This document shows positions 2,001 through 33,219 of a stretch of 38,377 nt of DNA, piece after piece (position 1 is the first letter of the stretch; the number at the start of each line of letters is the position of its first letter). The DNA comes from a virus. Its lineage: Duplodnaviria; Heunggongvirae; Uroviricota; Caudoviricetes. The notes under the pieces are model-generated. The model was not told where the DNA came from. It saw nothing but the letters and a program-made list of their open reading frames with translations, and made no database searches. The DNA lies in the IMG/VR virus record IMGVR_UViG_2531839475_000013; one strand, written 5' to 3'. The position numbers and the translations under genes were made by a program.

Positions 2001-2297
2001 TCAAATAGAGAAATAAACACAAAAACAAAAAACAACAGGAACAGCAAAATCCAACAGACTTCCCACATCCCACACGCGTGGATCAAAACCTCCCCACCAC
2101 GGCATGTTGATACGTTTCCCTTTCCCAAACTTTTCTATCCAGCGATATTCTGCCTGGGTGTGTTCACGCGCAATGAAGAACGTACAACCGGCTATCGCAC
2201 CGTAAGCCCAGTTTCCGGTAAAAATACCAACCAGTACCTGAGCCACAAAAGCGCAAAGCGAGTGAAGAAATGGAGTGACATCAATGCTCTTAATCAT
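2001..2297 (-). CDS. small membrane protein translationally coupled to the tailspike (function unknown)
   Basis: 98 aa; ATGA start/stop overlap with the tailspike at 2294..2297; two hydrophobic segments and a WWGGFDPRVWD motif; AT-rich. Confidence 0.5.
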   Translation of the reverse strand: MIKSIDVTPFLHSLCAFVAQVLVGIFTGNWAYGAIAGCTFFIAREHTQAEYRWIEKFGKGKRINMPWWGGFDPRVWDVGSLLDFAVPVVFCFCVYFSI

Positions 2298-4587: not shown

Positions 4588-4602
4588 TTACCTTTCAGGT
4601 GA
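4588..4602. promoter_or_regulatory. operator-like palindrome TTACCTTTCAGGTGA
   Basis: Member of the repeated TTACC-N5-GGTAA family; upstream of the LexA-box promoter of the small antirepressor-like gene. Confidence 0.55.
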
Positions 4603-4982: not shown

Positions 4983-5076
4983 ATTTACATCGCACTCCTC
5001 TTGTGCCATAGTAATCGGGCACTGGCAAAATCCAGTGCCGGGATTGGCGTCCCGAGTTACTACAGAGGCACATATG

Positions 5077-5096
5077 CCGCATAAGCGGTTTTTTTT
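5077..5096 (+). terminator. weak intrinsic terminator (CCGC-ATAA-GCGG then T8)
   Basis: Short GC stem followed by eight T; lies between the small antirepressor-like gene and the Bro-N gene. Confidence 0.35.
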
Positions 5097-5249
5097 ATGT
5101 GTAAAGCGCACCTATTCTATGGTGGGCTGTGTGGGGGCACCGAAAGGTGCGCCGGGTCCTTTGTAGCCGGTTACGCCAACCCTGCACAGTTCACCACCAA
5201 CCGATTGGCGTCGGTAGTGGTGATTAACCTAACTACAAAGGTGATCACT

Positions 5250-5936
5250 ATGACTGCTAACGTAACCCCATCTGTTTTTCATTTTGAATCAGAAGCAACC
5301 ATTCGAGCCATTGTTATTGATGGAAATCCTTGGTTTGTTGCCAAAGACGTTATTAAAGCTCTTCAACTGACAAACCCCACTATGTCAATAAAATCTCTTG
5401 ATGATGATGAAAGGGCTAAATTTAACTTAGGCCGTCAAGGCGAAACCAATATTATCAACGAGTCAGGCCTCTACACACTGATCCTCCGCTGCCGCGATGC
5501 AGTAACACCAGGCACTATCCCCTACCGCTTTCGCAAATGGGTTACAGGTGAGGTACTTCCTCAGATCCGCCGCACCGGAAGTTACATTAAAAACTCGCTC
5601 CCGCAAGAAGAACGCATAAAGATGGTTGCCGACCAGGTAGCCAACGCCACGGCGTCAGCAGTGATGCAGGCAATGAAGATAGAGAACAAAACCTACAGCG
5701 CCCCACTGAAGCCCGGCTACCGCAGCCTGATTCACTCGCCGTCTGGTGTTCTCGGCCTGACGGAGAACTCACTGCTGATGAATCTGCTGAACCAGTTACA
5801 GGAAGACGGGCACGACGTATCGGGCGCGGCGGCGGAGCTGACCACCATGTTCTGCTACATCGTCGGTGTGAGTAAATGCCTGCGTGATATCCAGACCCAC
5901 GCGGAATACATCAACGACAAAGCAGGGTTCTTCTGA
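5250..5936 (+). CDS. Bro-N domain antirepressor
   Basis: N-terminal region (VIDGNPWFVAKDVIKALQL...) matches the Bro-N/antirepressor DNA-binding domain; RBS AAAGGTGA; start chosen at the ATG at 5250 rather than the ORF-track start at 5097. Confidence 0.7.
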   Translation: MTANVTPSVFHFESEATIRAIVIDGNPWFVAKDVIKALQLTNPTMSIKSLDDDERAKFNLGRQGETNIINESGLYTLILRCRDAVTPGTIPYRFRKWVTGEVLPQIRRTGSYIKNSLPQEERIKMVADQVANATASAVMQAMKIENKTYSAPLKPGYRSLIHSPSGVLGLTENSLLMNLLNQLQEDGHDVSGAAAELTTMFCYIVGVSKCLRDIQTHAEYINDKAGFF

Positions 5937-7766: not shown

Positions 7767-8180
7767 TTATAAAGATGACTGATATTTTACAACTCTGTTC
7801 ATGGCATCTTTTTTCACCGAGCTGATATCAGTTCTTATTTTGGCTTCGTCATTACTGCTTATCATGCTATTAATTTTTTGCACTGACATGCCGTTTCTTT
7901 CAGCCATTGCACATACAGCAGCATCGTATGAAGAACTCGCTGCGATGGATATCACCTTGTTACACTCAAACACAGCACCTTCAGCAATATCAGATGCCGA
8001 TGAGGCTGGCTTGGTATAAGTCTTGACGTAGTGATCAATACAACTATCCTTCGCCGTCTTGGCAAGAGAAAAATCCATTTTAACTTTGTCGCAATATGCC
8101 TTATCAACACCGTCATAAACATCATAGGATGTCGAGCAAGCGGATATCAAAAATACCGATAACAGCAATAATTCCTTCAT
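7767..8180 (-). CDS. Cys-rich lipoprotein, last gene of the late operon (candidate exclusion lipoprotein)
   Basis: 137 aa; signal peptide with lipobox (MKELLLLSVFLISAC); six Cys in the mature part; lower G+C than the flanking virion genes. Confidence 0.6.
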   Translation of the reverse strand: MKELLLLSVFLISACSTSYDVYDGVDKAYCDKVKMDFSLAKTAKDSCIDHYVKTYTKPASSASDIAEGAVFECNKVISIAASSSYDAAVCAMAERNGMSVQKINSMISSNDEAKIRTDISSVKKDAMNRVVKYQSSL

Positions 8181-8189
8181 TGTTGTTCC

Positions 8190-10664
8190 TTATTGCGGAG
8201 TGACATCCTGAGGTCGCCACCAGTATGTCTGGTTAAACTCTTTCTTTGAACGTTGCTCCATTTTACGCAAATAGCCTGGTGAAAAATACTCCTGCATCTG
8301 GTTAAAGATCATGTGATCGAGAGCCGCCTTTAAGTACCAGAGATTCGCACCTGGCATCAGACCTTTCCCCAGCTTAACCAGATCACCACCAGTCTGCTCA
8401 TTCTTCCCTTCCACAGCATTTAACGGTATGCCCTGAGCAATCTTCACTACGTCATCAACCAGACCAGCTACCGGGCCAAGCATCGACGCCAACGCGCCGC
8501 TTCCGTACCTGGTGTGGTCAGAGAAAAGAAAATCACCATACAACCCTGCACCACCACCTTTTAAAAATGCATTTATCCAGAATTTAACCATGTTGTCACC
8601 GGTCATTTCTTTTGGATTTCTCCCATTAATAAGATCAGTAATCTGCATGGAAAGAGCACCAAGCATGGTTGTGCTTGCTAAAAACGTTGCTATATATGCT
8701 GCACGCCCACCAGCAGACGGCATCCCCATAGCTCTATGCCAGTGACGCATAACTACCGAGATAGGGAACGATTTAAACAGGAAAACACTTCTCGTTAATT
8801 CACCTTTCCATGTTCCACGCTGAAGACCAGACCCTACGAACATCTGTTCACGTGCGCCCGGTGTAATAACAGCCATATCAACTTCTTCAGTTACGGCACC
8901 GAGCAGTTTACGCATTGCCTCAAATTTCACGCGTTCAGGCTCACCAAGATGTTTAACTGCTGAATCAGGGATACGCATAATGCTTTCCGGTGTCAGCATC
9001 GTATTATTACCGTTCCCCCAGTCCTCCTGTTGCGCCAGCTTCCATACGCTCCAGTCTGTGTCAGTAATCCCTTTGCTTTTCAGGATACGAAAATCAGAGT
9101 CATCGAGGCTACGAAGGTCTGGTGTCCGTGACACTACTTCTCCCAGGCTTCCCATCATGGTTACGCCATAGGCGCGCTTGTGCGCATCTGACCATGCTGT
9201 AAGCCCACTGGCACGCATTACCGCCGTTGCCGCCCAACGAGACACAGACGGCCCCATATTATCCATCGCCCAGCGGTTAACGCTGCCAAGTAGAGATTCC
9301 ATCGCCAGGCCAGCGCGGCGCGCCCGCGCAAGTTCTGTACGGTTCGTTGGGTCCATAGCTTCAAGCTGGTTGCGAAATAACTGGTTCATTGGAAGGTTGG
9401 TAACCTTCGCAGACAGATACATGGTTCCAAGATCAGAGAACGATGACAGCAACGCGGATCCGAGTCTGCTGGCAACCAGCCAGTTGCGGATATTGTCAGA
9501 CCATCGCGCGATGTGCGGATTCGCTACAGGCTGTGTTTTTCCGGAAATAAAGTTGTACAAGTTCTCTGTTTTGTTCGCCAGACGCTCGACGCTACCGGTT
9601 TTACTCGGGTTAGCTGTTGCCGTTTCTGCCTTAACCTGATCAAGAAGGGAGCGGAAAACATGATCGGGGTTTGGGCCATATGTTTCCACCAGTGCAATAT
9701 CTTTACTGATACCTTCCAGGTGACCGACCATGATTTCCCATAGAGAGCGATCGCCATAAAGTTGCTGATATTGCAGATAGGAATCTGCATCTTTGAAATG
9801 TATCTGTCGTGATGCATTACCACGGTTAGCACGTGCGCCGGAAATTCGCATTCCGGTATCAGTAAGCTTATTCAGCCCACCAGTAGCGATCGTGTTATAA
9901 GCCTCTCCAAGAAATTCAGACAACTCGGCATCGTTCATCAGTTGTCCATCGGCTCGGATATAATATTTGCGATCCAGCTTACCTATAACATCGCTAACCC
10001 ACTTATCCTTTGATACCGACCCAACCTTTTCCATAGAATGATGTTGAGGGATCCCCCAGTTTTCGAGATAGCCAATGTCCCCACCAGCATCATTAAACCG
10101 GCGGCGCAGCAGCTCTGTAACTTCTCTCCACGCCTTAGCACCTTTTCTTGCTTTAGCATTGCCAGTATTTTGCCCCCGCATTTCATATACCAGGTCACGC
10201 ACGCCAGCTTCATCTTCAAACAGGCCAAAAAAGCGAGGATCAACTGCTTCAAATGCCTCTTGCAATTGACTCAATGCATAATCACGAGTGGCTTTTGTTC
10301 TGGATTCAACAGAGAGGAAATTCGATTTACCGTCTGCATTAAAAGCAATAGTACGGTTAAGAGCGCCAAGTTTCCCATCAGCCCCTTGATAGCTATTGAT
10401 AAATTTATCCAATCTCTGACGTGCGGCTATAGTGAGGGCCACACGACGTTTCTTTAATGCCGCTTCTCGCTGTAATTCTTCAGATGCCAATTGTGCTGCA
10501 CGATACAACCGTTCTGATTCGGAAAGTTGTCGCCACGACATCGGGTCATCACGAGCAATGGAGCGCATATTTCGATAAATGCGGTCTTCAATGTTCTGTA
10601 TTTCTCGCGCCGTTAACGTGCGCTGCGCCGCCTGCTGGACCGCTTGTATACATTCCTGTCTCAT
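8190..10664 (-). CDS. internal virion / DNA-ejection protein (T7 gp16-like position)
   Basis: 824-aa ORF inside the tail/ejection block; start overlaps the upstream stop (TAAATG) with a GAGAGG RBS; no catalytic motif recognised. Confidence 0.5.
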   Translation of the reverse strand: MRQECIQAVQQAAQRTLTAREIQNIEDRIYRNMRSIARDDPMSWRQLSESERLYRAAQLASEELQREAALKKRRVALTIAARQRLDKFINSYQGADGKLGALNRTIAFNADGKSNFLSVESRTKATRDYALSQLQEAFEAVDPRFFGLFEDEAGVRDLVYEMRGQNTGNAKARKGAKAWREVTELLRRRFNDAGGDIGYLENWGIPQHHSMEKVGSVSKDKWVSDVIGKLDRKYYIRADGQLMNDAELSEFLGEAYNTIATGGLNKLTDTGMRISGARANRGNASRQIHFKDADSYLQYQQLYGDRSLWEIMVGHLEGISKDIALVETYGPNPDHVFRSLLDQVKAETATANPSKTGSVERLANKTENLYNFISGKTQPVANPHIARWSDNIRNWLVASRLGSALLSSFSDLGTMYLSAKVTNLPMNQLFRNQLEAMDPTNRTELARARRAGLAMESLLGSVNRWAMDNMGPSVSRWAATAVMRASGLTAWSDAHKRAYGVTMMGSLGEVVSRTPDLRSLDDSDFRILKSKGITDTDWSVWKLAQQEDWGNGNNTMLTPESIMRIPDSAVKHLGEPERVKFEAMRKLLGAVTEEVDMAVITPGAREQMFVGSGLQRGTWKGELTRSVFLFKSFPISVVMRHWHRAMGMPSAGGRAAYIATFLASTTMLGALSMQITDLINGRNPKEMTGDNMVKFWINAFLKGGGAGLYGDFLFSDHTRYGSGALASMLGPVAGLVDDVVKIAQGIPLNAVEGKNEQTGGDLVKLGKGLMPGANLWYLKAALDHMIFNQMQEYFSPGYLRKMEQRSKKEFNQTYWWRPQDVTPQ

Positions 10665-19786: not shown

Positions 19787-20224
19787 TTAACCAGTTACTT
19801 TTGAGCGGATCGGGTACGGCGTATTGGCATCAACATCCAGACTGATACCCGCAGTGAATTTGCCGGCCGTTAGTGGGCCAGTTGCGACGGAGTAGTTAAC
19901 ACGCAGATATCGCTGAACACCGGCTGGCACCTTTGCAGAAACAACTCGCTTACCTGCTGTCAGGGTGGCCTTTGCCAACGCACCACTATCATAAATAGTG
20001 GTCCAAGAGCTGTTATTCTCACTCGTCTGCAACTGGATGTTTACAGTTGCCTCACCACTTGCCGTGGCGGCTTCGTTAACCAGCCCCCAAAACTCAAGCG
20101 GGTAACCCACACCGATATCGCGACGGTTTCCATCAATTGGACCGAGATCGATTACGTCAGTAGAAGCCGCGGTATTCGTAACCGCCTGAGCTTCGGAGAA
20201 CATCAACAGTTTGTCGGTGATCAT
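19787..20224 (-). CDS. putative capsid decoration / minor capsid protein
   Basis: 145 aa, Thr/Ser/Ala-rich, immediately downstream of the major capsid gene. Confidence 0.4.
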   Translation of the reverse strand: MITDKLLMFSEAQAVTNTAASTDVIDLGPIDGNRRDIGVGYPLEFWGLVNEAATASGEATVNIQLQTSENNSSWTTIYDSGALAKATLTAGKRVVSAKVPAGVQRYLRVNYSVATGPLTAGKFTAGISLDVDANTPYPIRSKVTG

Positions 20225-20239
20225 CTTCTTTCTCCATTA

Positions 20240-20259
20240 GTGGGTCTGTTACGACCCAC
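20240..20259 (-). other. RNA stem-loop (GTGGGTC-N6-GACCCAC) after the major capsid gene
   Basis: Perfect 7-bp inverted repeat in the gap after the capsid gene; no U-tract, so probably a stabiliser or processing site rather than a terminator. Confidence 0.4.
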
Positions 20260-20275
20260 AGGTTAATAACAGGCG

Positions 20276-21268
20276 TTACACCACGCGGGCTTCTGTTTCC
20301 AGAAGCGCATCAGTTTCACGGATTGGTACACCACGGAATGAAGTCCACCACTCGCCTTCTGTCTCTTTTACGCTGATAGCCAGAGATGTTTTCTCCAGAG
20401 ACTGCAGATCAAGAGCCTGGCCTACAGTGCGGTTCATGTAGAACACCGGGCGGCCCATGCCACGGTTTGGAATGCGATGTAGTGCTTTAACCATCAACTT
20501 CGCAATATTTGCGGCAGAGGATGGTTCTGAAAGATTGCTGACATCGATGTTTGCAATGCGAACAACATAACGCCAGTCACGCAGAGCAAGTCCGTTATCC
20601 CATTTGTAATGGGTGCGATAGCCTTCGTACTTGCCGCCATTAGCATCTTCCAGTGTCACCTGGCCTTTATCTTCCATCTGGATGCCAGCCTTCTGCCCTT
20701 TCGGGAAGATGCCATGCACGGTGTTTTCGCCCCACACCACTAACCAGATTGAGGTGTTATCTGTACCCGTGCCACCAGCATCAATGATGTTCTGAGCATT
20801 ACCCGCAGACAGGCTGGAATAGCGGGAGGACAGTCCCATAAACTGCTGAGGGTTAACGCTGGAATCACCATAAAACAGCGTCTGCGCCATCTGCTGATTC
20901 ATCGCTTCAATAAATGCGCGGTCTTCAGACAGGCGGAATTCGGCGGTATTGCCGTTCAGATCAGCCAGTGACTTATCGACTTCCGCATAGGTTTCCAGCA
21001 TGCCAACGGAATCGGTTACCTGCACTGTGGTTGATTTGCTTGGCTGTACGCCATAGTTCAGCAAACGCCAGGTAGCTGAAGGTAAACCAGAACGAATGGT
21101 GGTTCGGTGTCCGGTAGGAAGGTTCCCTTCGACAAAAGGCATATCCTGAAGGATCGGGTTAGTTTGACCGAGAAGCTCGATAATCTTATCGACTTTCCCG
21201 TTTGGATCGACGCGCTTACCCCAGTCAGCCAGCGTTAGCGCAGTTAAGCCTTTAACAGCCATTGTCAT
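20276..21268 (-). CDS. major capsid protein
   Basis: 330 aa, immediately after the scaffold-like gene; size and position as in T7-supergroup podophages. Confidence 0.8.
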   Translation of the reverse strand: MTMAVKGLTALTLADWGKRVDPNGKVDKIIELLGQTNPILQDMPFVEGNLPTGHRTTIRSGLPSATWRLLNYGVQPSKSTTVQVTDSVGMLETYAEVDKSLADLNGNTAEFRLSEDRAFIEAMNQQMAQTLFYGDSSVNPQQFMGLSSRYSSLSAGNAQNIIDAGGTGTDNTSIWLVVWGENTVHGIFPKGQKAGIQMEDKGQVTLEDANGGKYEGYRTHYKWDNGLALRDWRYVVRIANIDVSNLSEPSSAANIAKLMVKALHRIPNRGMGRPVFYMNRTVGQALDLQSLEKTSLAISVKETEGEWWTSFRGVPIRETDALLETEARVV

Positions 21269-21276
21269 TTCCTCTC

Positions 21277-21978
21277 TTATTTGCCATAGAGCACTTCGGC
21301 CGCACTACGCTGGCCTTCATTACCACCGGTGACCATGCCATCTTCAGACATCGCCTTTCCGATTTTCACGAACGTTTTGACCAGATCAGGGTGATTACCC
21401 AGTCCGGTGGTGTTCAGATATTCTTTGAGTTCAGGTGTCCCGAACTGGTCAAGCGCACGCTGTGCGGCGCTGAGGTTAGAAATTAACTTGTCGCCACCGA
21501 TTTCTTTGTCAGCTTTTACATCCGCAGCCCACTGCTCGGTTGTTTTCTGCCAGGCTTCTGCCTGGCGCTGCTGAACACCTGCCAGAATCTTCGGATAAGC
21601 ATCAACCAGCTTTTGCGCTTGCTCGTTGGTCAGGTTAAGTTCTCGCGCCACCGGCTCGAATTCCTTCAACGCTTCTGTATCCAGCTCTACGCCTTCGGCA
21701 GCCTGAAACTCGTACTTCTCAGGCGCACCCTCTGGTTTATCGCCGTCCTTTTTTTCATCCTGCTTATCGTTTTCAGGCTTTTTGTCAGCAGCAGGTTTAT
21801 CGCCATCAGCAACAGGTTGTGGCTTATCACCTTCCTGTTGTGATGGATCACCAACTGGAGCAGGGTTATCACCTGCAGGCGCTGACGGTTCTGACGCTGC
21901 CGGAGCTGCTCCACCATCGACTGGTTGCTCATTGCAAAGACGGCGATACAGCAAACGCTCAAATAAATTCATGATCAC
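21277..21978 (-). CDS. scaffolding protein
   Basis: 233 aa, acidic, low-complexity N-terminus with repeated GDKP motifs then helical C-terminus; between portal and capsid. Confidence 0.55.
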   Translation of the reverse strand: MIMNLFERLLYRRLCNEQPVDGGAAPAASEPSAPAGDNPAPVGDPSQQEGDKPQPVADGDKPAADKKPENDKQDEKKDGDKPEGAPEKYEFQAAEGVELDTEALKEFEPVARELNLTNEQAQKLVDAYPKILAGVQQRQAEAWQKTTEQWAADVKADKEIGGDKLISNLSAAQRALDQFGTPELKEYLNTTGLGNHPDLVKTFVKIGKAMSEDGMVTGGNEGQRSAAEVLYGK

Positions 21979-22271
21979 TCCTGTTCACTGGCCTCTTTGG
22001 CCATCTTCAAATACTGTTCAGGGCAATGCGCCATAACGCGCTGAAACAGTTCCAGCGCCAGATTGCGTTGCCCCTCATTAAATGCCATTGCCATAGCGTC
22101 CATCGGTGAGATAGCGGAAAACACACGGCCTTTCTCCAGCACCGACCAGACAACGCGACGCCCCTGTTCACTGCTCATGACAAAGCGAATGTCATCAATT
22201 TCACGCTGCGCCATGTCACGTTGCTTACGGGCGTTTTCTTCTTCCAGTTGATCTTCTTCGTAATCTGTCAT
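21975..22271 (-). CDS. small acidic head-morphogenesis protein (hypothetical)
   Basis: 98 aa, overlaps portal stop and scaffold start. Confidence 0.4.
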   Translation of the reverse strand: MTDYEEDQLEEENARKQRDMAQREIDDIRFVMSSEQGRRVVWSVLEKGRVFSAISPMDAMAMAFNEGQRNLALELFQRVMAHCPEQYLKMAKEASEQE

Positions 22272-23947
22272 TGTGATTGCCCACCCTGACCACTAACTGC
22301 ATTCGCCATAGCTGACAACACACTCGGATCCGAAGTTTTAGCTTCGCTTAGCGTCTTGGCCCCCTGTGCCGCCGCCATCCCCATCGCCATCATTTGTTGC
22401 TGCTGTTGTTGCTGTGCCCGTTGCTGGCGGGCCTGCTCAACCTGTTCCTGCGGAACAATGACGGTTGGAGACACTCCGGACATATCAGCGAATGCATCGA
22501 TCGCCTGATCAACGTTGAGTTTGTCGAGAGCTTCTGGTTTCGCTTGCGCAAGTTGACCAATGAAGTTAACCGTGGACGCCAGACTGGACAGGCCGATAGA
22601 CTTCTGCGCCTGAGCCATGACGGAAATGTATTCGACCTTCAGGGGCATGCCTTCCATCGCGTCAGGCGGTGGCGGCAGCATGTTTTTACGCACCATCATC
22701 GAGAAAGCGCGGTCAATGAGAGGATTAAGACATTCGTCGTTCAGACGCTCCAGAACCGGCCCCAACATCAGAAGTTTTTCTTCTTTCATTTCGATCACCG
22801 CTTCAACAGGCATCGAGCGGGTATTGATGTTCTGCAACATCATGAACAGATCGACAAAGTAGGCGCTGTTAATGATTTGACGAGTGTCCTGAATGTCTGC
22901 CACCAAATCTGCTGTACTGGGGTTAACCAGATAAGCAGGCCTGAAACCATCCTGACCAGTAATCTGATCGATATACGTGATGTCGCCAGGAAGAAGGGAG
23001 GCGCGCTGATTCTTGAGGGAAGTCGGAGCAACCATCGGCGGATTGGTGGCTTTATCAATCAACTGCGACTTGCGCTTCTGGAGAAGCTGCAATGCCTTAA
23101 CAGGTCCAAGCGCCAGCATACCCGGGCATGATGATCCATAAACATCTTCGCCATTAACTTCCCAGCGCGGAGCCATAATTGGAAACTCATCAAATCCGGA
23201 CTCACGCAACAACTTGTCGTTATCGCCACCAACCTCGTAATAAACCGATTTGAATGGCTTGTTCTTGCTATCCAGCTTCGATGTATCGCGGTCAATGTTC
23301 GGGTAAACCGAATGCATCACTTCAATCCACTTCTCGTAGGTGCCGCTTTCCCACATGCTTTTTACGGATTCGCTGACGTTATTTAGCCCGAACTCCTGAA
23401 CAAGCTGACGAACAGTCATAGAGAACTTGCGAAAACAGGTGTCCACACTGCCACGAGGTGAGTTAGCCAGGTAGTAACTGCCTATCGGGAATGGCATTGT
23501 GCGAATGATGTCCTCGTCATCCTCCAGCACCGCCATTGCACCAGTGCTGTATGTGCCGAGGCTTCCGTATAACTGCGGAAGAGACTGATAGAGATTCGAC
23601 TTATTGAACATATCGTTCATGCGGTTCTGCACCGCCTCAAGCCACAACTTAACAGGGCCATAATCCATCATTTCAGGATCTGGCGTAGCCAGGCGAAACC
23701 ACGGACGCGCGGGGCTTGTGATGCCTGACATCATGCCGCTGGCGAGAGTGCGCGCCGCCATAGTCCCGGTCGAATCAATAATGCGTGTATTGCGTCGGTC
23801 GTTACGGTTGACCTCAGAAGTCAGAAAGCGGGAACCACGCGGGTTGATGTAATCACTCAACTCGCGCCAGTGCGGCTCGAACGATTGACGCTCGCTTTCA
23901 AGTTGTGCGAACTGTTTGTTCAATCGCTCTTTAGTTGTTTCCGCCAT
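22268..23947 (-). CDS. portal (head-to-tail connector) protein
   Basis: 559 aa, first large gene after the terminase; Gln-rich C-terminal tail (QQRAQQQQQQQ). Confidence 0.8.
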   Translation of the reverse strand: MAETTKERLNKQFAQLESERQSFEPHWRELSDYINPRGSRFLTSEVNRNDRRNTRIIDSTGTMAARTLASGMMSGITSPARPWFRLATPDPEMMDYGPVKLWLEAVQNRMNDMFNKSNLYQSLPQLYGSLGTYSTGAMAVLEDDEDIIRTMPFPIGSYYLANSPRGSVDTCFRKFSMTVRQLVQEFGLNNVSESVKSMWESGTYEKWIEVMHSVYPNIDRDTSKLDSKNKPFKSVYYEVGGDNDKLLRESGFDEFPIMAPRWEVNGEDVYGSSCPGMLALGPVKALQLLQKRKSQLIDKATNPPMVAPTSLKNQRASLLPGDITYIDQITGQDGFRPAYLVNPSTADLVADIQDTRQIINSAYFVDLFMMLQNINTRSMPVEAVIEMKEEKLLMLGPVLERLNDECLNPLIDRAFSMMVRKNMLPPPPDAMEGMPLKVEYISVMAQAQKSIGLSSLASTVNFIGQLAQAKPEALDKLNVDQAIDAFADMSGVSPTVIVPQEQVEQARQQRAQQQQQQQMMAMGMAAAQGAKTLSEAKTSDPSVLSAMANAVSGQGGQSQ

Positions 23948-23961
23948 TTCAATGACTCCGG

Positions 23962-24168
23962 TTACTGACCAAGCAGCGTTTTACCGCTGGTATTAGCGGT
24001 TGATGTGTCGCCCTGAGAACCGGTAAGCAGCGTAGAACTACGACCAGCAGCAGCGCGACGGCGACGTGTTTCTTCGTCGCGGGCATCAACAACGGCGGCA
24101 TCCTGCTCCTGTGGTGCTGCCTGAACTTCTGGTGTTGCAGGCACTGATGGTGAGCTACCCATGCACAT
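23962..24168 (-). CDS. small Ser/Thr/Ala-rich protein upstream of portal (hypothetical)
   Basis: 68 aa with a GGAG RBS at correct spacing; ends 15 nt before the portal start; low-complexity, so coding status is uncertain. Confidence 0.3.
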   Translation of the reverse strand: MCMGSSPSVPATPEVQAAPQEQDAAVVDARDEETRRRRAAAGRSSTLLTGSQGDTSTANTSGKTLLGQ

Positions 24169-24236
24169 ATCAATGACTCCGTACGCAATTAAATTATTAC
24201 CAATTTAACCACATATGATTTATTTATCGTAGATAG

Positions 24237-24273
24237 TTGACATTTAACGCACAAATTATTACCTTTCAGGTAA
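24237..24273 (+). promoter_or_regulatory. promoter (-35 TTGACA at 24237..24242) with operator TTACCTTTCAGGTAA (24259..24273)
   Basis: Consensus -35 hexamer; perfect TTACC-N5-GGTAA over the -10/+1 region; module resembles 4530..4605 and 30185..30275. Confidence 0.5.
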
Positions 24274-24594
24274 CCAAAGAGTTCATTCCGGTTACTAACC
24301 TGACTGGCTTGTCGTTAAATTGAACAGGTGGAGTGAGCTTTTATTTTGAGCAGTACGGCGTATGGCACATGCGCCGATAGCGGTCTGGATACGTTTAAGG
24401 GGCACCCTCCCTTGCTCGGGCAAACGAACCAGGTAGCCGGAATGTGCAAGTCGAGCGGTTTTATTCCGCGCACGGGGATTCACCATCCCGGCGATTCGGG
24501 TGACGCCTCGGAAGAGACGAGGGTACAACGATGAGAGCATTTATGGAGCCGCGACAAAGTGTGGCGCCTTAACAGGCTAAGTGCTCTCAGCGTT

Positions 24595-24671
24595 GTGGCA
24601 TTAGCTCAGCTGGACAGAGCAACCGCCTTCTAAGCGGTTGGTCGCAGGTTCGAATCCTGCATGCCACGCCA
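24595..24671 (+). tRNA. tRNA-Arg (anticodon UCU)
   Basis: Hand-folded cloverleaf: acceptor GTGGCAT/ATGCCAC, D-arm GCTC-AGCTGGACA-GAGC, anticodon stem ACCGC/GCGGT with loop CTTCTAA (anticodon TCT), T-arm GCAGG-TTCGAAT-CCTGC, discriminator G, encoded CCA. Confidence 0.9.
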
Positions 24672-24714
24672 GAATCACGCCTAAGGACCGTGATGCCAGA
24701 AGTTCCAGGTGCTT

Positions 24715-24757
24715 GGCGGTGATGGTTTCCCTTGAAGGACTATCACCGCCCTTTTTA
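24715..24757 (+). terminator. intrinsic terminator after the tRNA (9-bp stem GGCGGTGAT/ATCACCGCC, then CTTTTTA)
   Basis: Perfect 9-bp stem with 18-nt loop followed by a T-run. Confidence 0.6.
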
Positions 24758-24835
24758 CAGCAGGACGCCATTGCGATGACTTCATGCTGTAAACCCGTAC
24801 AGCAACGGAAGGCATAACTCATTGCTTCCAGTTCG

Positions 24836-24858
24836 CCCGGTTCGCCGGGCATTTTTTT
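24836..24858 (+). terminator. second terminator/attenuator (CCCGG-TTCG-CCGGG then T7) abutting the RBS of the next gene
   Basis: GC stem with tetraloop followed by CATTTTTTT; the AAGGTGA RBS of the DUF2829-like gene follows directly. Confidence 0.55.
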
Positions 24859-24869
24859 AAGGTGAGATT

Positions 24870-25166
24870 ATGAGCGAAACATCAACAGTATCTTTCTCCA
24901 CTGCTTTGTCATCACTCAAAGATGGTAAGCGCATTGCACGTGCCGGATGGAATGGCAAAGGCATGTATCTGCAACTGGTTAAGCCACCGCAATCGGCCAC
25001 TCCGAACGATTGGCGATTTGACGTTACATGCGGTGACGAGTATACATTTGTACCTGGCGTTAAACTTCTACCGTGGATTGGGATGAAAACTGCTGACGGT
25101 TGCTTTGTACCGTGGCTGGCATCTCAAACCGATCTGCTATCTGATGATTGGATTGTAATTCAATAA
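24870..25166 (+). CDS. DUF2829-like small protein (Tad2-like candidate anti-defence sponge)
   Basis: 98 aa; N-terminal ALSSLKDGKRIARAGWNGKGMYLQLV and C-terminal ASQTDLLSDDWIVIQ match my recollection of the DUF2829 signature; RBS AAGGTGA. Not verified by HMM. Confidence 0.5.
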   Translation: MSETSTVSFSTALSSLKDGKRIARAGWNGKGMYLQLVKPPQSATPNDWRFDVTCGDEYTFVPGVKLLPWIGMKTADGCFVPWLASQTDLLSDDWIVIQ

Positions 25167-25170
25167 CACC

Positions 25171-25182
25171 GTGACATGTCAC
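25171..25182. repeat. perfect 12-bp palindrome GTGACATGTCAC (copy 2 of 3)
   Basis: Starts 5 nt after the stop of the DUF2829-like gene and 4 nt before the terminator hairpin. Confidence 0.8.
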
Positions 25183-25186
25183 AAAC

Positions 25187-25214
25187 AGCCAGCCTATGAG
25201 CTGGCTTTGTTTTA
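25187..25214 (+). terminator. intrinsic terminator (AGCCAGC-CTATGA-GCTGGCT then TTGTTTTA)
   Basis: 7-bp stem, 6-nt loop, T-rich tail; ends the plus-strand tRNA/DUF2829 unit just before the convergent TerL stop. Confidence 0.6.
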
Positions 25215-25256
25215 TCCTCACCAGAGGATATCAACGACATTATCCCCACCAGCGGA

Positions 25257-26732
25257 TTAAGCATAGGGATCGTAATCTGTGATGGCCTTGCCTTGCTGGT
25301 TCTGCTGACCGGGAATTCGCAGACGCTTCGACACAGGGAACGCAAACGTCAGCAGTAGCGCATCGCCTTTACCAGGAGAACGCCCAAGTCGTTCTTTGAT
25401 ATCTTCCTTCGGTTCGATAACGATTTTACCGTCCACTCGAACTTTGTACTCTGCCGCCGACAGATCGTCCGCTGTTTCCTGGTCATCCAGCATGCCGCCG
25501 AGCCTCAGCCATGTCTTGCATGAGTTGAACATCTCCCCACGCTTGTTGAGCATCTGCGGGTCAGTAGACGCGCCACCGAACGGAACAAGTTGCCATGTAC
25601 GACCCCAGCCGTCACCGATTGACTTCAGACCAGTTCCGTAACCGAAGTCGATGAACACTGCGTCAGCCTGATACTGGTCTTCAAAGTCAGCGATACGCTT
25701 CGCCATAATCAGATCGTCGGTAGTCTTGTTGCCAGTCCACAGCACCTTACTGTGTAGCCCCTGCCGCAGGTATATCACCGCGTCATCAACGCCTGAATAT
25801 GCCGGGTCAACACCGATTATCACCGGAGCATGCGCCACCTGCGCAGCAGTTACCACCCGTTTCATTGCCTCGTCAGTAAGGCCGGTAGGGATAAACTGCA
25901 ATTCAGATGCATCAGGGAATATGCCGCGCACACGGATTTTAACGAAGTCGCTGTCTTCCCCGTAGTCATCAACCCATTTCTGCAACTGCTGTTTGTTAGT
26001 GCCTTCCACCGTTCGGCTGTCAATCTGCGCAGTTTTCCAGCGGTGTTTATATTTGCGGAAACATTCGCGAAAACGCCCGGTATTACGCGTCGGGTTTCCG
26101 AACGCCACCCAGATAATCTCAGTGTCTTCGTCCGTAAGCGCACCCTCAGCAACTTCCCACACCAGATCCGCAATGTTCGACGCTTCATCGAATACCAAGA
26201 TGATGCGTTTGCGCTCATTGTGTAATCCGGCGAATGCCTCAGTGTTGTGCTCAGACCAGGGGATTGCGTCAGCTCGCCACCGCTTGTCGTGCCCAGGGTC
26301 ATTGCCGTACATCGCGGTAGCGGTGCAGGTGAACCAGTCTTTCGTGATAGCAAGGTTCGACCACTTGATAATTTCAGGCCAGGTCTTCGTTCGTAGCTGG
26401 TTGTCGGTGTTGGCGGTCACCACGACCTTACAATCCTCGCAAGTGGACATGCCCCAGTTGATCAGCATTGAGATGAATGCGGATTTACCAATACCGTGAC
26501 CAGAAGCACGTGCCAGCATAAGCGGCTGATATCGCGTCTCTGGATTCTGCAGGTGATCACGTATCTCTCGGAACGCATCGGCCTGCCACTGACGTGGGCC
26601 GGTGGCATGTGCCAGTTCAGTACCCTCTTCCCCCCACGGGAAAGCATAGAGGGCATAGCCAAGCGGATCGTGAGTGAACCCTGCAATATCCTCGATCAAC
26701 TGCTCTTCAGGAGATAACGCTGTATCTTTCAC
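25257..26732 (-). CDS. terminase large subunit
   Basis: 491 aa; Walker A-like ARASGHGIGKS near the N-terminus, acidic nuclease-type C-terminal half; 4-nt overlap with TerS. Confidence 0.85.
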   Translation of the reverse strand: MKDTALSPEEQLIEDIAGFTHDPLGYALYAFPWGEEGTELAHATGPRQWQADAFREIRDHLQNPETRYQPLMLARASGHGIGKSAFISMLINWGMSTCEDCKVVVTANTDNQLRTKTWPEIIKWSNLAITKDWFTCTATAMYGNDPGHDKRWRADAIPWSEHNTEAFAGLHNERKRIILVFDEASNIADLVWEVAEGALTDEDTEIIWVAFGNPTRNTGRFRECFRKYKHRWKTAQIDSRTVEGTNKQQLQKWVDDYGEDSDFVKIRVRGIFPDASELQFIPTGLTDEAMKRVVTAAQVAHAPVIIGVDPAYSGVDDAVIYLRQGLHSKVLWTGNKTTDDLIMAKRIADFEDQYQADAVFIDFGYGTGLKSIGDGWGRTWQLVPFGGASTDPQMLNKRGEMFNSCKTWLRLGGMLDDQETADDLSAAEYKVRVDGKIVIEPKEDIKERLGRSPGKGDALLLTFAFPVSKRLRIPGQQNQQGKAITDYDPYA

Positions 26733-27325
26733 TGATTACCATCCTGACGTTCTTTGAGTCGCTTCCTGGCTGCTGCTATGCGATCAGCAATTGTCACATT
26801 CACATTAACATCCAGACGTTCTTTGAACGCGTTGACATCAACATGCTTACCAATCAGCTCAAGGTTCTTCACCTTGTCAGGCCATTTAATTTTTTTGAGG
26901 ATTGTCTCTATCGAATCCTCATTCATGTTCATGATGGTCGATGACAGATCAAAGCCGCTAAGCGTAGTGCGCCAGATTTTCGGCCACTCGCGAATTGGCT
27001 TAAGGCTTCCATCGTCGTTGAGGATATCAATCACGTCCATCTGGTCGATCTCCACCAGGCGCATGAGAACGTAATCAGCACTGACGCGCATTCGTTTGTT
27101 GCGCTCCTCCATCAACTCGGCAATCCGTTTTTGAATGCGTTCATCGCGCATCATTACACTGGCTTTAACTGCCGCTGTATTTGGGGAGAATCCTGCGTTA
27201 ATCGCTGCCTGAGTCTGGTTTTCAGGCGTTTTGATGTATGACTGGCAATAAGCCTCCTGCATTGCTGTGAGCGGCTTAAATTGCGTTGATTTGCGTTTAT
27301 AGGTTTTAGGTTCAGCAGGCATCAT
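26729..27325 (-). CDS. terminase small subunit
   Basis: Start placed at the ATG doublet at 27325 (MMPAEPK...); region LTAMQEAYCQSYIKTPENQTQAAINAGFSPNTA matches the small-terminase HTH motif. The ORF-track start at 27403 is a TTG giving an implausible TITTTVTITT leader. Confidence 0.7.
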   Translation of the reverse strand: MMPAEPKTYKRKSTQFKPLTAMQEAYCQSYIKTPENQTQAAINAGFSPNTAAVKASVMMRDERIQKRIAELMEERNKRMRVSADYVLMRLVEIDQMDVIDILNDDGSLKPIREWPKIWRTTLSGFDLSSTIMNMNEDSIETILKKIKWPDKVKNLELIGKHVDVNAFKERLDVNVNVTIADRIAAARKRLKERQDGNQ

Positions 27326-27368
27326 AACCACCGTGGTAATAGTTACCGTTGTGGTAATAGTACCATGC

Positions 27369-27394
27369 AAAATAAAGCCGCCATAGTTGGCGGC
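27369..27394 (-). terminator. intrinsic terminator upstream of TerS (GCCGCC-ATAGTT-GGCGGC, then TTTATTTT on minus strand)
   Basis: 6-bp GC stem followed on the minus strand by a T-run; sits between the last early gene and TerS (tR'-like position). Confidence 0.5.
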
Positions 27395-27435
27395 AGTATT
27401 CAAAACCCGTCAAATTCATCATGCATAATCTACTC

Positions 27436-27447
27436 GTGACATGTCAC
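27436..27447. repeat. perfect 12-bp palindrome GTGACATGTCAC (copy 3 of 3)
   Basis: Overlaps the stop codon of the zinc-ribbon gene, ~45 bp upstream (minus-strand sense) of the terminator before TerS. Confidence 0.8.
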
Positions 27448-27782
27448 ACTATTAATTTCGTTTCATGCCAGCCTTTAGTCACCCAGCATTGCGAGTCACC
27501 ATTACACGGGCATGAATTAACTGGAACTCTCTCGCCGCACTTACCGCAACGTTTTCTGCTGATCGATTTTATACGCCCGCGCACGCGTGCATCATCCTGG
27601 CGGATCAGTAACGCTACATACTCACCAAATTCGTAAGGCGCACGCCCGGGGCGACGCGTGGCACAGTTACGCTCCAGCATTTCAATTTCCTGAGCATCAA
27701 GCACAATTTCCAGCTTACGCACACCAGATGCAGCTTGTCTAGCTCTCTGAGCGGCTTTGCGCTCTGCTGCTGATTTAGCCAT
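27444..27782 (-). CDS. small basic protein with C-terminal Cys-rich zinc-ribbon-like motif (candidate late-gene regulator)
   Basis: 112 aa; Arg/Lys-rich N-terminus, C-terminal CGKCGERVPVNSCPCNGDSQC; last gene before the terminator/TerS junction. Confidence 0.35.
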   Translation of the reverse strand: MAKSAAERKAAQRARQAASGVRKLEIVLDAQEIEMLERNCATRRPGRAPYEFGEYVALLIRQDDARVRGRIKSISRKRCGKCGERVPVNSCPCNGDSQCWVTKGWHETKLIV

Positions 27783-32634: not shown

Positions 32635-33219
32635 ATGAAAAGTATCCAGGACGTCCGCAGGCAAAATCTCAACGACTTGATCGACCGTGAATTCAATGGT
32701 GTTCAGACGCGGATGGCTGAAAAACTTGGAACTCAGGCAAATCTGGTAAACCGCTGGGCTCTTGGCAAGAAGGTTATCGGCGACCAGGTTGCGCGAAAAA
32801 TTGAAGCTGCCGCCAATAAACCCCGTAACTGGCTTGATATCGATCGCTCGCTTTCTCAGGAAGGTTTTCAGCCTGTCGGACCAAGCGACATTGGTCAACT
32901 GGCGGCTCACAACCTGGAACGCTGGATGAGCGAAAGCCGCGACCTTTCAACGCAGGGAAAACTTCACCGCGCATCCGGCGTCGCCCAGGTGACAATCAGC
33001 CGCCTGTTAAACAATGAGGTCAGCGTTTCCATTTCCACCCTGGAGAATGTTGCATCCGCATTCGGGCGTCACGGCTATGAATTACTGATTCACCCGCACG
33101 ACCCTGCGACTATCAACTATGACCGCTCGCGCTACGCTTTGTTACCCGAAACCGAGAAAGCAAAGATCGAAAGTTACATTGAATTTGTCATCAACCAGAA
33201 CGAAAAAAACAAACAATAA
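32635..33219 (+). CDS. prophage repressor, two HTH domains, no S24 peptidase domain
   Basis: 194 aa; two HTH-like segments (TRMAEKLGTQANLVNRWALGKK and ASGVAQVTISRLLNNEVSVS); no Ala-Gly/Ser-Lys autocleavage module visible; little or no RBS, so possibly leaderless. Confidence 0.6.
   Translation: MKSIQDVRRQNLNDLIDREFNGVQTRMAEKLGTQANLVNRWALGKKVIGDQVARKIEAAANKPRNWLDIDRSLSQEGFQPVGPSDIGQLAAHNLERWMSESRDLSTQGKLHRASGVAQVTISRLLNNEVSVSISTLENVASAFGRHGYELLIHPHDPATINYDRSRYALLPETEKAKIESYIEFVINQNEKNKQ

Follow-up and report, generated by a model that had tools for sequence, protein, structure and literature searches.

The lambda N/nutL region and the lambda pR'-6S RNA-tR' segment with Q share with the unit described below an order of early promoter, structured leader, strong terminators and then genes. 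The P4 CI and P1/P7 C4 RNAs are processed by RNase P, and processing at a tRNA-like junction would be a further common feature. The put RNA of HK022 and HK639, by comparison, acts in cis and binds the zinc-binding domain of the RNA polymerase β' subunit; for lambdoid phages without N, recent phage-genome authors have reportedly guessed at "put-like" mechanisms. Phage-encoded tRNAs for rare codons are represented by argN/argO of Stx phages and likewise by trnA/trnT/trnI of P1. Finally, the known Tad2 anti-Thoeris sponges (SPO1 Gp34.65; HgmTad2, which is AcrIIA7; SptTad2; ModTad2) contain the domain PF11195/DUF2829, which they have in common with a 98-aa protein of the phage described here.

The stretch of DNA analysed, in the following called the window (38,377 nucleotides), belongs to a phiV10/epsilon15-like Uetakevirus. 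Its minus-strand portal and terminase genes flank a plus-strand unit for which the initial annotation had listed an operator-controlled promoter, a tRNA and two terminators, and every one of these parts was found. The order of the unit is promoter and operator, 5' segment, structured RNA, cargo RNA slot, terminator T1, hairpins, terminator T2, SD, cargo ORF and terminator T3:

22268-23947, minus strand: portal gene, flanking the unit
24237..24273, plus strand: promoter with repressor operator, read from the sequence
24274..24355, plus strand: 5' leader segment, conserved among uetakevirus-type copies
24356..24527, plus strand: structured RNA core, from covariation and a covariance model
24525..24596, plus strand: P7 module, a long closing stem around a variable hairpin
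24595-24671, plus strand: tRNA-Arg(UCU), ARAGORN; Rfam RF00005, 71.7 bits against a gathering score of 29
24674..24694, plus strand: trailer hairpin AUCACG-CCUAAGGAC-CGUGAU, conserved in an alignment of 27 distinct relatives
24715..24756, plus strand: T1, 14-bp stem (24715-24750) and U5, dG about -22 kcal/mol
24758..24834, plus strand: inter-terminator segment, conserved, with two hairpins, kept even in epsilon15
24835..24858, plus strand: T2, GCCCGG-UUCG-CCGGGC, stem and loop 24835-24850, U7 24852-24858
24860-24865, plus strand: SD AGGUGA, ahead of the ATG at 24870
24870-25166, plus strand: Tad2-family CDS, 98 aa, Pfam PF11195 'Tad2-like'
25187..25214, plus strand: T3, stem 25187-25206, separating the cargo gene from the convergent terL
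25257-26732, minus strand: TerL, flanking the unit
26729-27403, minus strand: TerS, flanking the unit
32635-33219: HTH repressor gene, around which operator copies are grouped

We read this as an accessory transcription unit that a phiV10-like Uetakevirus expresses early and under repressor control, organized as a modular RNA cassette in which the structured RNA would promote read-through of the terminators, and assign this joint reading a probability of roughly 45%.

The promoter consists of a -35 hexamer TTGACA (24237-24242, plus strand) and a weak -10, TACCTT at 24260-24265, which agrees at 3 of 6 positions. Owing to this weak -10 it was left uncalled by a sigma-70 promoter scan of positions 23800-25500, which called no promoter anywhere. 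The -10 is overlapped by a perfect palindrome, TTACCTTTCAGGTAA (24259-24273), of which the window contains 15 copies with up to 2 mismatches, compared to 0.84 expected. These cluster at the HTH repressor gene and in the antirepressor region, and the equivalent site is annotated as a repressor binding site in the epsilon15 record. Judged by these matches, the operator on the promoter is the phage's own. The operator-controlled promoter proposed earlier is present, as a sequence prediction, with its -35, weak -10 and palindrome. Since the repressor operator overlaps the promoter, lytic-only timing would be set there and not by the terminators, which the initial annotation had credited with confining the Tad2 gene to lytic growth and which are probably not needed for this. 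The term 'moron' used for the unit is also a poor fit: a moron is expressed whether or not the phage is repressed, whereas here the operator of the phage repressor spans the promoter -10 and the sequence predicts a unit that stays off in the lysogen. The epsilon15 record has a predicted RNase III site in the region equivalent to the 5' segment (24274..24355).

What had been described as a structured leader of ~320 nt is indeed structured, as its 321 nt fold better than shuffles (z = -3.2), but it is more than a mere leader and contains an RNA whose family is widespread and so far undescribed. This element (24356-24596, plus strand) is a conserved, pseudoknotted RNA of ~240 nt with at least seven helices, whose core is composed of the following parts:

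24356-24376, plus strand: P1 hairpin
24381-24387 with 24430-24439, plus strand: P2, enclosing the variable P3
24440-24450, plus strand: invariant single strand GAAUGUGCAAG
24450-24452 with 24490-24492, plus strand: P4
24475-24478 with 24486-24489, plus strand: P5
24481-24484 (CACC) with 24499-24502 (GGUG), plus strand: pseudoknot
24506-24522, plus strand: P6

Covariation was evaluated in 53 diverged copies of the element, each with <93% identity. Across these copies 97.4% of cells are paired, whereas slid controls reach 30-44%; compensatory changes occur in 12 of the 32 pairs, and none of 500 shuffles matched the observed pairing values. The covariance model matches the window at 148.8 bits and in a single copy. 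The core is followed by the P7 stem, ACAACG-AU-GAGAGCA ... UGCUCUC-AG-CGUUGU, whose 3' strand reaches the first two bases of the tRNA and which exists in several compensatory types (GAGAGCA/UGCUCUC, AAGAGCA/UGCUCUU, GAGCGCA/UGCGCUC and GAUGGCU/AGUCAUC). A boxA/nut reading of P7 was rejected: the boxA-like sequence, UGCUCUU, makes up the 3' side of this stem, its changes are matched by changes in the opposite strand, and several lineages no longer agree with boxA at this position.

The element was found in 1831 of 5426 complete E. coli genomes, and also in P1, Stx phages, mEp460-like prophages and phage SopranoGao, always at one location per phage record. Its contexts comprise the pL leader, the gap between terL and the portal gene in uetakeviruses, the P1 ban operon, where it lies ~15 nt downstream of tRNA-Ile, and a position after the Rz gene in SopranoGao. 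In none of these genomes is it annotated as an RNA. A scan with Rfam 15 returned the tRNA as sole match at the gathering threshold and no family that fits the element; relaxing E up to 10 for the window copy and up to 5 for the mEp460 copy gave nothing meaningful, and literature searches with the invariant sequence strings found no match. The element is an undescribed, widespread phage RNA family with P7, the cargo RNA slot and T1 as modular partners. From epsilon15 the core, the tRNA and the 5' arm of T1 are gone, although T2 and the cargo gene remain. Use of put has been proposed in the literature for phage LLS; both put and the core are missing there, and of the modules only P7, cargo RNA and T1 are present.

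In the window, the cargo RNA slot is occupied by the tRNA-Arg(UCU), which has a cloverleaf, the anticodon TCT and an encoded CCA, so that ARAGORN and Rfam bear out the earlier assignment. Many close relatives (Tyrion, PAT1, epsilon15) lack this tRNA. AGA accounts for 7.6 per 1000 codons of the phage, with none in head genes and many in tail genes; E. coli K-12 uses ~2 per 1000, and the usage in phage ORFs is thus ~3.5 times higher. For tRNA-less copies, a tRNA-like reading of GUGGUGAAU-GCGCAGGCUGAUGCGC after P7 was discarded, as ARAGORN detected no tRNA there. A different cargo is sRNA-17, a virulence-associated RNA from an mEp460-like prophage of E. coli K1 RS218 (PMC7719688), which was located on mEp460 via the published primers. 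It corresponds to mEp460 L002 2737-2930, starting at the last base of P7 and ending at a T1-type terminator. Its 3' end had been mapped at this T1 homologue (PMC7719688); as these in vivo transcripts end there, termination does happen at the site. The sRNA-17 unit and the window have a conserved unit in common, in which tRNA-Arg replaces the sRNA-17 body. In the published work, the mapped 5' end was taken as the transcription start and the upstream block was not seen as a structured RNA (PMC7719688). The 'sRNA-17 promoter' fragment used there for ArcA binding (L002 2488-2737) is the element itself, and because the forward primer of the sRNA-17 qRT-PCR sits at the 5' end of the element, the element is transcribed (PMC7719688). 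It appears that sRNA-17 is a processed piece of the pL leader and that its "promoter" is an RNA. In mEp460, a closing stem of GUUGUGGUGA with UCACCACAAC around the sRNA-17-type cargo was seen by eye; an automated test of this stem was confounded by internal matches.

Downstream of the cargo slot, T1 is of a type, UUGGCGG...CCGCC-CUUUUUACA, that accompanies the P7/cargo module and is found at 75 of 154 element loci compared to 0 of 50 put loci. Its stem covaries among relatives. T2 has six G-C pairs and a UUCG loop (dG about -11 to -13 kcal/mol) and ends 11 nt upstream of the cargo start codon; in relatives its stem covaries as well (GCCCAC...GUGGGC), and they also preserve its junction with the SD. 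A terminator scan gave 4 terminator-like sites against 1.7 expected, and the phiV10 and epsilon15 records annotate a terminator at the position of T3. With their G+C-rich hairpins, U tracts and conserved structure, T1 and T2 are predicted intrinsic terminators, in agreement with the pair noted earlier at 24715..24757 and 24836..24858. The initial annotation had also seen no room for an internal promoter; in fact, the scan detected none from T1 up to the gene, the space after T2 is too short for one, and translation of Tad2 therefore requires read-through transcripts. The T2-SD junction is followed by at least nine alternative cargo ORFs in relatives, the Tad2-like gene being one of them, and the architecture of the cassette is consequently not specific to Tad2. 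A terminator placed directly against the next ORF recurs in many contexts of the element.

The cargo gene of the window had been associated with DUF2829 and Tad2, and all lines of evidence agree with this assignment. The HMM search matched PF11195 with E 3.2e-24 (85.7 bits, cut-off 25) over profile positions 2-73 of 73, and phmmer matched the solved Tad2 structures 8kbi, 9eib, 8v3e, 9kzr, 8wjd, 8sme and 8wje with E values from 3e-15 to 6e-12, at 30-37% identity to solved members. An AlphaFold model (pLDDT 80.7) compared by Foldseek with the PDB recovered the Tad2 fold as predicted, the best 24 matches all being Tad2 (probability 1.0, TM 0.62-0.83). The gcADPR site of HgmTad2 is formed by W21/N22/G23 and W87/L88/S90/T92/D93 (PMC10680739), and in the alignment, on which this comparison rests, GWNG and PWLASQTD of the 98-aa protein are identical at these residues, which are invariant or nearly so in 41 homologues. 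The protein is, according to model and alignment, of the Tad2-type fold with an intact predicted gcADPR pocket. It differs from solved Tad2 proteins in the short middle between the N- and C-terminal blocks (residues 41-60, pLDDT ~53), and the cyclic-dinucleotide pocket of HgmTad2 (S47, F70, N85) has no clear counterparts. The ligands of the family vary and include 3'cADPR, His-ADPR, N7-cADPR, cUMP/cCMP and CDNs (PMC12393519). HgmTad2 furthermore doubles as an anti-CRISPR (PMC13133391).

In lambdoid phages, the element is the first RNA from pL. The order in mEp460 is cI stop, terminator, two operator-like repeats and promoter, with the element ~25-35 nt further on and no N-like gene between pL and the first gene. 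A cI-like S24/HTH repressor gene is encoded just upstream on the same strand in ~15 of 50 representative element loci, and strong terminators (dG -16 to -23) separate the element from the first early-left gene in 12 of the 16 cI-adjacent loci examined. This slot is identical to that of HK022 putL and of the annotated putL-like RNA of HK639. A location after an early promoter and before terminators, as for put, applies to the cI-adjacent loci and to the window; it does not apply to P1 and SopranoGao, where no terminator follows the element.

In the mechanism that we favour, host RNA polymerase would transcribe the unit once the repressor is absent, that is, upon infection or induction. Cleavage by RNase P at the 5' end of the tRNA, which is the end of P7, would free both the structured RNA and the tRNA-Arg, and the latter could aid the decoding of AGA, which is enriched in tail and accessory genes of the phage. 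Tad2 mRNA would stem only from polymerases that pass T1 and T2. By analogy, and at somewhat less than even odds, we suggest that the elongating polymerase is a cis target of the structured RNA and reads through terminators more often as a result, which would make this RNA an analogue of the HK022 put RNA, whose pL-proximal slot it holds in lambdoids. The Tad2 sponge might then be abundant early in infection and sequester Thoeris gcADPR signals. Covariation of T1 and T2 and the conserved T2-SD junction with variable cargo speak for this mechanism, as do the slot at pL in common with put, the mutual exclusion of put and the element, the strong terminators ahead of the early-left genes without an N-like gene in mEp460, the position of the sRNA-17 ends at P7 and at the T1 homologue, and the AGA usage. 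Against it stand the in vivo termination of sRNA-17 at the T1 homologue, the single copy, the lack of detectable put homology, the loss of the core in epsilon15 and its absence from LLS, as well as the weak -10 and the missing terminator after the element in P1 and SopranoGao. Moreover, a polymerase that no longer responds to terminators should pass T3 as well and would then transcribe terL in antisense. It seems rather unlikely, although conceivable, that the ~240-nt RNA represents a new class of phage RNAs reprogramming the host transcription complex in the manner of a large put analogue, or a ribozyme-like processing module, and forms with the terminators a portable 'RNA-gated expression cassette' by which uetakeviruses, lambdoids and P1, as temperate phages of enterobacteria, supply tRNAs, sRNAs and anti-defence genes immediately once repression lifts.

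Instead of acting in cis, the structured RNA might be a processed, stable trans-acting RNA (a regulator, decoy or anti-defence RNA) freed by tRNA-type processing, with T1 and T2 as ordinary RNA-gene terminators and the cargo expressed by passive leakage. In the window the element joins the 5' end of the tRNA without a gap, and in P1 it closely follows a tRNA; the 5' end of sRNA-17 lies at the same P7 junction, the genomic contexts are unrelated, a dedicated terminator type accompanies the module, and single strands that never vary hint at a conserved host target. We nevertheless consider this explanation doubtful. In lambdoids, every early-left gene is separated from pL by the unit, and plain termination at T1 would therefore silence the integration, excision and recombination genes; the conserved T2-SD-cargo junction points to selection for expression through T2; and neither a target nor a stable species of the element has been reported. 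The earlier model, an ordinary structured leader and tRNA with tandem terminators as a timing gate that limits Tad2 to lytic growth via inefficient read-through, was right about the terminators, the missing internal promoter and the Tad2 assignment. It appears improbable, however, as the operator on the promoter already sets the timing, what was taken for the leader belongs to a conserved RNA family that one in three complete E. coli genomes contains, the same scaffold bears many other cargo ORFs, and a stoichiometric sponge would be hard to reconcile with leakage past two strong terminators. That the conserved block acts as DNA, either as the ArcA-bound promoter for which exactly L002 2488-2737 was used in an EMSA (PMC7719688) or as a minus-strand protein gene (as in the Ayreon and mEp460 annotations, the latter with the 122-aa CDS mEp460_037 over the element; 81 aa in the window, an ORF we rejected), is very improbable, because the covariation is strand-specific with invariant or frequent G-U pairs that are sensible only in a plus-strand RNA, 1- and 2-nt indels within conserved blocks break the frame, PGAP made zero CDS calls there in the listed E. 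coli genomes, the element is transcribed according to the qRT-PCR primer, the EMSA needed 20-80 uM ArcA (PMC7719688), and no sigma-70-like promoter lies inside the window element.

The favoured action in cis invites comparison with put and nut. While put has ~70 nt and two stems, the element has ~240 nt, at least seven helices and a pseudoknot and, unlike put, also occurs outside pL leaders. Neither nhmmer with filters off (HK022, HK639) nor the covariance model run on HK022, HK639 and three put loci gave a match up to E 10. Where put has paired sites at pL and pR, the element has a single copy, with no putR-like second one. A 16-nt identity with HK022, ACGGTGTGACACCTGG, lies inside the nun coding sequence and was treated as chance. 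Put and the element co-occur in 0 of 205 loci; their loci have small downstream modules in common. Both RNAs also contain the motif ACGGCG...CAUGCGUCG with the same CGGCG:CGUCG pairing, which in put constitutes the base of stem I and the RNAP-contacting CAUG bulge (PMC9378689). As the IMG/VR probe ACGGCG-N(9-13)-CATGCGTCG yielded many chance matches, only the 47 with a put-type spacer were used. By sequence comparison, the element is not a detectable put homologue, and any relation would be positional plus this one 15-nt composite motif. A lambda-type nut site would have a single-stranded boxA, a boxB hairpin and a cognate N, but the boxA-like sequence is here a helix strand, and no N-like ORF was found between pL and the first gene of mEp460; the hairpins after P7 differ by lineage, and a protein partner encoded elsewhere could therefore be involved. 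In contrast to the lambda N/Q and the P4/P1/P7 switches, neither N nor Q nor an antisense target was identified for the element.

In lambdoid phages that lack N, the element may be the device for early antitermination that has been missing so far. About one third of complete E. coli genomes contain it, as do P1 and Stx-converting and typing phages, yet neither Rfam nor genome annotation includes it. The T2-SD junction, a swap site for small genes including Tad2-family sponges, provides a practical hunting ground for anti-defence genes. Taken alone, the tRNA and the Tad2 gene are ordinary additions to already known kinds, and the structured RNA is the main new result; compared to other phage tRNAs, the one in the window is distinguished by its place inside a conserved non-coding cassette.

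The 1.1-kb gap that holds the plus-strand unit lies between terL (25257–26732, −) and a small ORF/portal pair (23962–24168 and 22268–23947, −). It is ~98% identical to phiV10, TL-2011b, O157 typing phages 9 and 10, and vB_EcoP_ZX5, and has more distant matches in epsilon15-like phages of Salmonella, Klebsiella, and Enterobacter. On the strength of these matches, the window is assigned to a Uetakevirus genome or prophage. Megablast of the region also returned 64 Synechococcus phage records, presumably via the tRNA-Arg gene only. A 112-aa ORF without Pfam match (27444–27782, −), located immediately upstream of terS and possibly a regulator of late genes, combines an Arg-rich N-terminus with a CxxC...CxC motif.

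Features of the plus-strand unit (coordinates, strand, description)
24237–24242, +, consensus −35 (TTGACA) of the promoter, read from the sequence
24259–24273, +, perfect palindrome TTACCTTTCAGGTAA, operator
24355–24594, +, conserved structured part of the leader, with core (24356–24527) and closing stem P7 (24525–24596)
24595–24671, +, tRNA-Arg(UCU), the sole tRNA called (ARAGORN and Rfam)
24715–24750, +, terminator T1, 14-bp stem followed by U5, dG about −22 kcal/mol (terminator scan and folding)
24835–24850, +, terminator T2, six G-C pairs with a UUCG loop followed by U7, dG −11 to −13 kcal/mol
24870–25166, +, 98-aa Tad2-like ORF, the cargo gene
25187–25206, +, terminator T3, dG about −12 kcal/mol (terminator scan and folding)

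The initial annotation described the leader simply as structured. Structured it is, but it was overlooked that this segment belongs to an undescribed RNA family of wide distribution, set within a modular cassette. A BLAST search with 24274–24594 found 24355–24594 at ~70–83% identity in unrelated phages. These include the lambdoids mEp460, cdtI, 2H10, Ayreon, and Stx2c and Stx2a phages, furthermore P1, P7, D6, SJ46, and RCS47, several Klebsiella, Enterobacter, and Salmonella phages, and one phage listed as infecting Stenotrophomonas. The element occurs in 1831 of 5426 complete E. coli genomes, and none of the listed E. coli records carries an annotation over it. Copies were gathered from species-representative genomes and IMG/VR via an invariant 15–19-mer and reduced to 53 at <93% identity. 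In this set, 97.4% of the cells pair in helices P1, P2, P4, P5, and P6 and a pseudoknot, and 12 of the 32 pairs have changed on both sides (117 cells). This pairing and covariation was reached by none of 500 shuffles, and sliding the partners by 1–3 columns lowers pairing to 30–44%. The pseudoknot between loop CACC and GGUG becomes AACC:GGUU in five sequences and is unpaired at that position in none, and P7 shows at least five compensatory types. G-U pairs are frequent or invariant, which sets the strand of the RNA as plus. Between the helices, GAAUGUGCAAG, parts of GAUACGGUGUGAC, and GGAAGAG never vary. Two copies searched against Rfam 15 matched no family even at permissive thresholds, and a literature search for the invariant strings gave no match. 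When these 53 copies were made into a covariance model, it detected a single complete element in the window (148.8 bits) and a truncated version in epsilon15. The exact invariant 19-mer was also present on two contigs labeled as Oscillospiraceae/Bacillota MAGs, one of them (L031) with the full element; these are likely mis-binned enterobacterial phage DNA.

The promoter ahead of the element combines its consensus −35 with a weak −10 (TACCTT), and a sigma-70 scan of 23800–25500 reported no promoter-like site, thus missing this one too. Calling it a promoter under operator control, as initially proposed, rests instead on the palindrome TTACCTnnnAGGTAA, of which the window contains 15 copies with up to two mismatches (0.84 expected), and on the epsilon15 record, where the equivalent of 24259–24273 is annotated as a repressor binding site.

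Operator palindrome copies: 4588, 4968, 6007, 9709, 14729, 24259, 27343, 30196, 30258, 32180, 32356, 32517, 32565, 33277, 33339
5019–5201, +, isrK (74 bits) and C4 antisense RNA (79.5 bits) in tandem
5097–5936, Bro-N antirepressor-like ORF
32635–33219, HTH repressor gene

The copies group on either side of the repressor gene and around the isrK/C4/Bro-N region: the space between the divergent cro-like and repressor genes holds four, a further two are downstream of the repressor, and another two are upstream of replication genes. They appear to delimit a repressor regulon, and this clustering together with the epsilon15 annotation argues for direct control of the plus-strand unit by the prophage repressor. 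Silence in the lysogen should then follow from repression; terminator read-through, to which confinement to lytic growth had been attributed, is not what imposes it. The isrK/C4 tandem immediately precedes and overlaps the start of the Bro-N ORF and is flanked by the palindromes at 4588, 4968, and 6007. The region resembles an immI module of the P1/P7 type, here in a Uetakevirus.

ARAGORN and Rfam agree on the proposed tRNA-Arg(UCU), whose CCA end is encoded in the DNA. AGA accounts for 7.6 per 1000 codons in the window ORFs (86 of 674 Arg codons), compared with about 2 per 1000 in E. coli K-12. The head/terminase genes (19787–27331) contain no AGA codon and the tail and accessory genes many (2294–4483, for instance, has 13 and 8190–10664 has 9), which makes codon supplementation a plausible role.

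The Tad2 assignment of the 98-aa protein is likewise upheld by Pfam PF11195 (E 3.2e-24). The protein matches all solved Tad2 structures (HgmTad2/AcrIIA7, 8kbi; ModTad2, 9eib; SptTad2, 8wjd; SPO1 Tad2, 8sme/8wje) with E-values of 3e-15 to 6e-12, and the top 24 PDB matches of its AlphaFold model (pLDDT 80.7) are exclusively Tad2. In HgmTad2, gcADPR is held by W21/N22/G23 and W87/L88/S90/T92/D93 according to mutagenesis and crystallography (PMC10680739). These residues align with identical ones here (GWNG, PWLASQTD) that vary little or not at all among 41 homologues. A short stretch, modeled with low confidence, connects the conserved N- and C-terminal blocks, and counterparts of the cyclic-dinucleotide pocket residues were not evident. 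Since Tad2 homologues bind very different signals (PMC12393519), the family membership is firm, but the ligand is not. The tRNA and the Tad2 gene are ordinary additions to known families; the RNA and the cassette architecture are the parts worth pursuing.

Both terminators that had been proposed ahead of the cargo gene were recovered by the terminator scan. The U tract of T2 ends at 24858, directly followed by the Shine-Dalgarno sequence AGGUGA (24860–24865) and the ATG at 24870, and this spacing leaves no room for initiation between T2 and the gene, as previously suggested. T1 belongs to a shared terminator type, UUGGCGG...CCGCC-CUUUUUACA (dG −16 to −23). Across 27 distinct uetakevirus-type copies, the stems of T1 (for example, GGCGGUGAU/AUCACCGCC versus GGCGGUACC/GGUACCGCC) and T2 (GCCCGG/CCGGGC versus GCCCAC/GUGGGC) covary, conservation extends to the inter-terminator segment, and the junction U7-AAGGUGA-N4-ATG is invariable. 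The ORF behind it belongs to at least nine families: gp49/66 (the most frequent), Tad2-like proteins of 98 or 173 aa, HNH, a membrane protein, and several unknowns. A terminator whose end is 15–35 nt upstream of the following ORF recurs in other contexts too. Taken together, these patterns argue that the placement of a gene behind terminators is under selection and, given the range of cargo, is not specific to Tad2. The P3 loop (~24405–24412) and the T1 loop (24729–24736) usually include UCCUU or CCUUG, also in relatives. They resemble the 16S anti-Shine-Dalgarno and are complementary to AAGG of the conserved cargo Shine-Dalgarno, and might connect element, T1, and cargo translation.

In mEp460, the cI stop is followed by a terminator and then by a promoter with two operator-like repeats; the element comes 25–35 nt further on. 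Judging by this order, the element is the first RNA from pL in the lambdoid setting. A cI-type HTH/S24 repressor lies directly upstream on the same strand in about 15 of 50 representative loci; the uetakevirus portal is present in three and P1 tciA in two. The P1 copy is located in the C1-controlled ban operon, ~15 nt past tRNA-Ile and ~100 nt ahead of ban. Genes downstream of the element vary widely, encoding DnaB, Exc, RdgC, gp49/66, HNH, and Tad2-like proteins, and strong terminators of the shared type separate it from the first early-left gene in 12 of the 16 cI-adjacent loci examined.

Outside evidence is provided by sRNA-17, a 193-nt transcript characterized by 5'/3' RACE and Northern blot in E. 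coli K1 RS218, where an mEp460-like prophage encodes it (PMC7719688). The published primers place it at mEp460 2737–2930, from the last base of P7 to the U tract of a T1-type terminator. The tRNA-Arg occupies this slot in the window, where the P7 boundary is its RNase P site; many relatives have no tRNA. The 'promoter' fragment of the ArcA gel shifts (mEp460 2488–2737; PMC7719688) is the element itself, and the qRT-PCR forward primer for sRNA-17 is located at the element's 5' end, indicating that both are co-transcribed. These data give transcription of the unit in the plus sense, termination at a T1-type terminator in vivo, and formation of an RNA 5' end at the P7 boundary. Given that the 'promoter' fragment is structured RNA and that P7 ends where sRNA-17 begins, the latter probably arises by processing of the pL leader and not as a primary transcript.

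We propose that the unit would fire once the repressor is absent, that RNase P would split the structured RNA from the tRNA, and that Tad2 mRNA would be made solely by polymerases passing T1 and T2. The structured RNA may aid this passage in cis, like the antiterminator RNA put of HK022 and HK639, a reading to which we assign a probability of roughly 0.4. It is favored by the pL-proximal slot, by the mutual exclusivity with put, and by the strong terminators that, in lambdoid relatives lacking N, precede every early-left gene. The invariant single strands, which point to a host target that is conserved, and the abundant expression that a stoichiometric sponge needs speak for it as well. Against it stand the lack of homology to put, the single copy per phage, and the terminated sRNA-17 present in vivo; furthermore, P1 and SopranoGao have no terminator behind the element, P7, cargo, and T1 occur in phage LLS although the core does not, and passage of T3 would run antisense into terL. 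In epsilon15 (2030–2136, compared with window 24335–24757), a deletion covers the core of the element and the tRNA as well as T1's 5' arm, while T2 and the phage's own cargo gene were retained. Its end points lie within a ~13-nt repeat, UUCCCUUGAUGCU, which in close relatives has one copy in the P3 loop and another in the T1 loop. The main rival, a processed, trans-acting RNA with the cargo fed by passive leakage, is somewhat less likely in our view.

For cis-acting read-through, put is the known system to compare. In HK022 and HK639 it occupies the same pL slot as the element in lambdoids (PMC9378689), and the two co-occur in none of the 205 loci gathered here. A simple pattern for the T1-type terminator matched 75 of 154 element loci and none of 50 put loci. 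Small modules that can occur downstream of either are a GU-rich GUGGUGAAU tract, the hairpin GCGCAGGCUGAUGCGC, and AAGCCGGAGAUCAGC. Common to both is ACGGCG...CAUGCGUCG with the same CGGCG:CGUCG pairing, which in put flanks the RNAP-contacting CAUG bulge. As neither nhmmer nor a covariance model detected put RNA with the element, its membership in the put family is not demonstrable. A 16-nt identity between the invariant segment ACGGTGTGACACCTGG and HK022 (413–428, minus strand) falls within the nun coding sequence and is probably due to chance. LLS, which lacks an N gene and was guessed by the authors of its genome to use put, has neither put nor the core element. What it carries behind a different 5' module (~7870–8270, minus strand) is P7, a stretch like sRNA-17, a terminator of the T1 type, and the post-T1 module. 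Accordingly, pL leaders seem to be mosaics assembled from small RNA modules.
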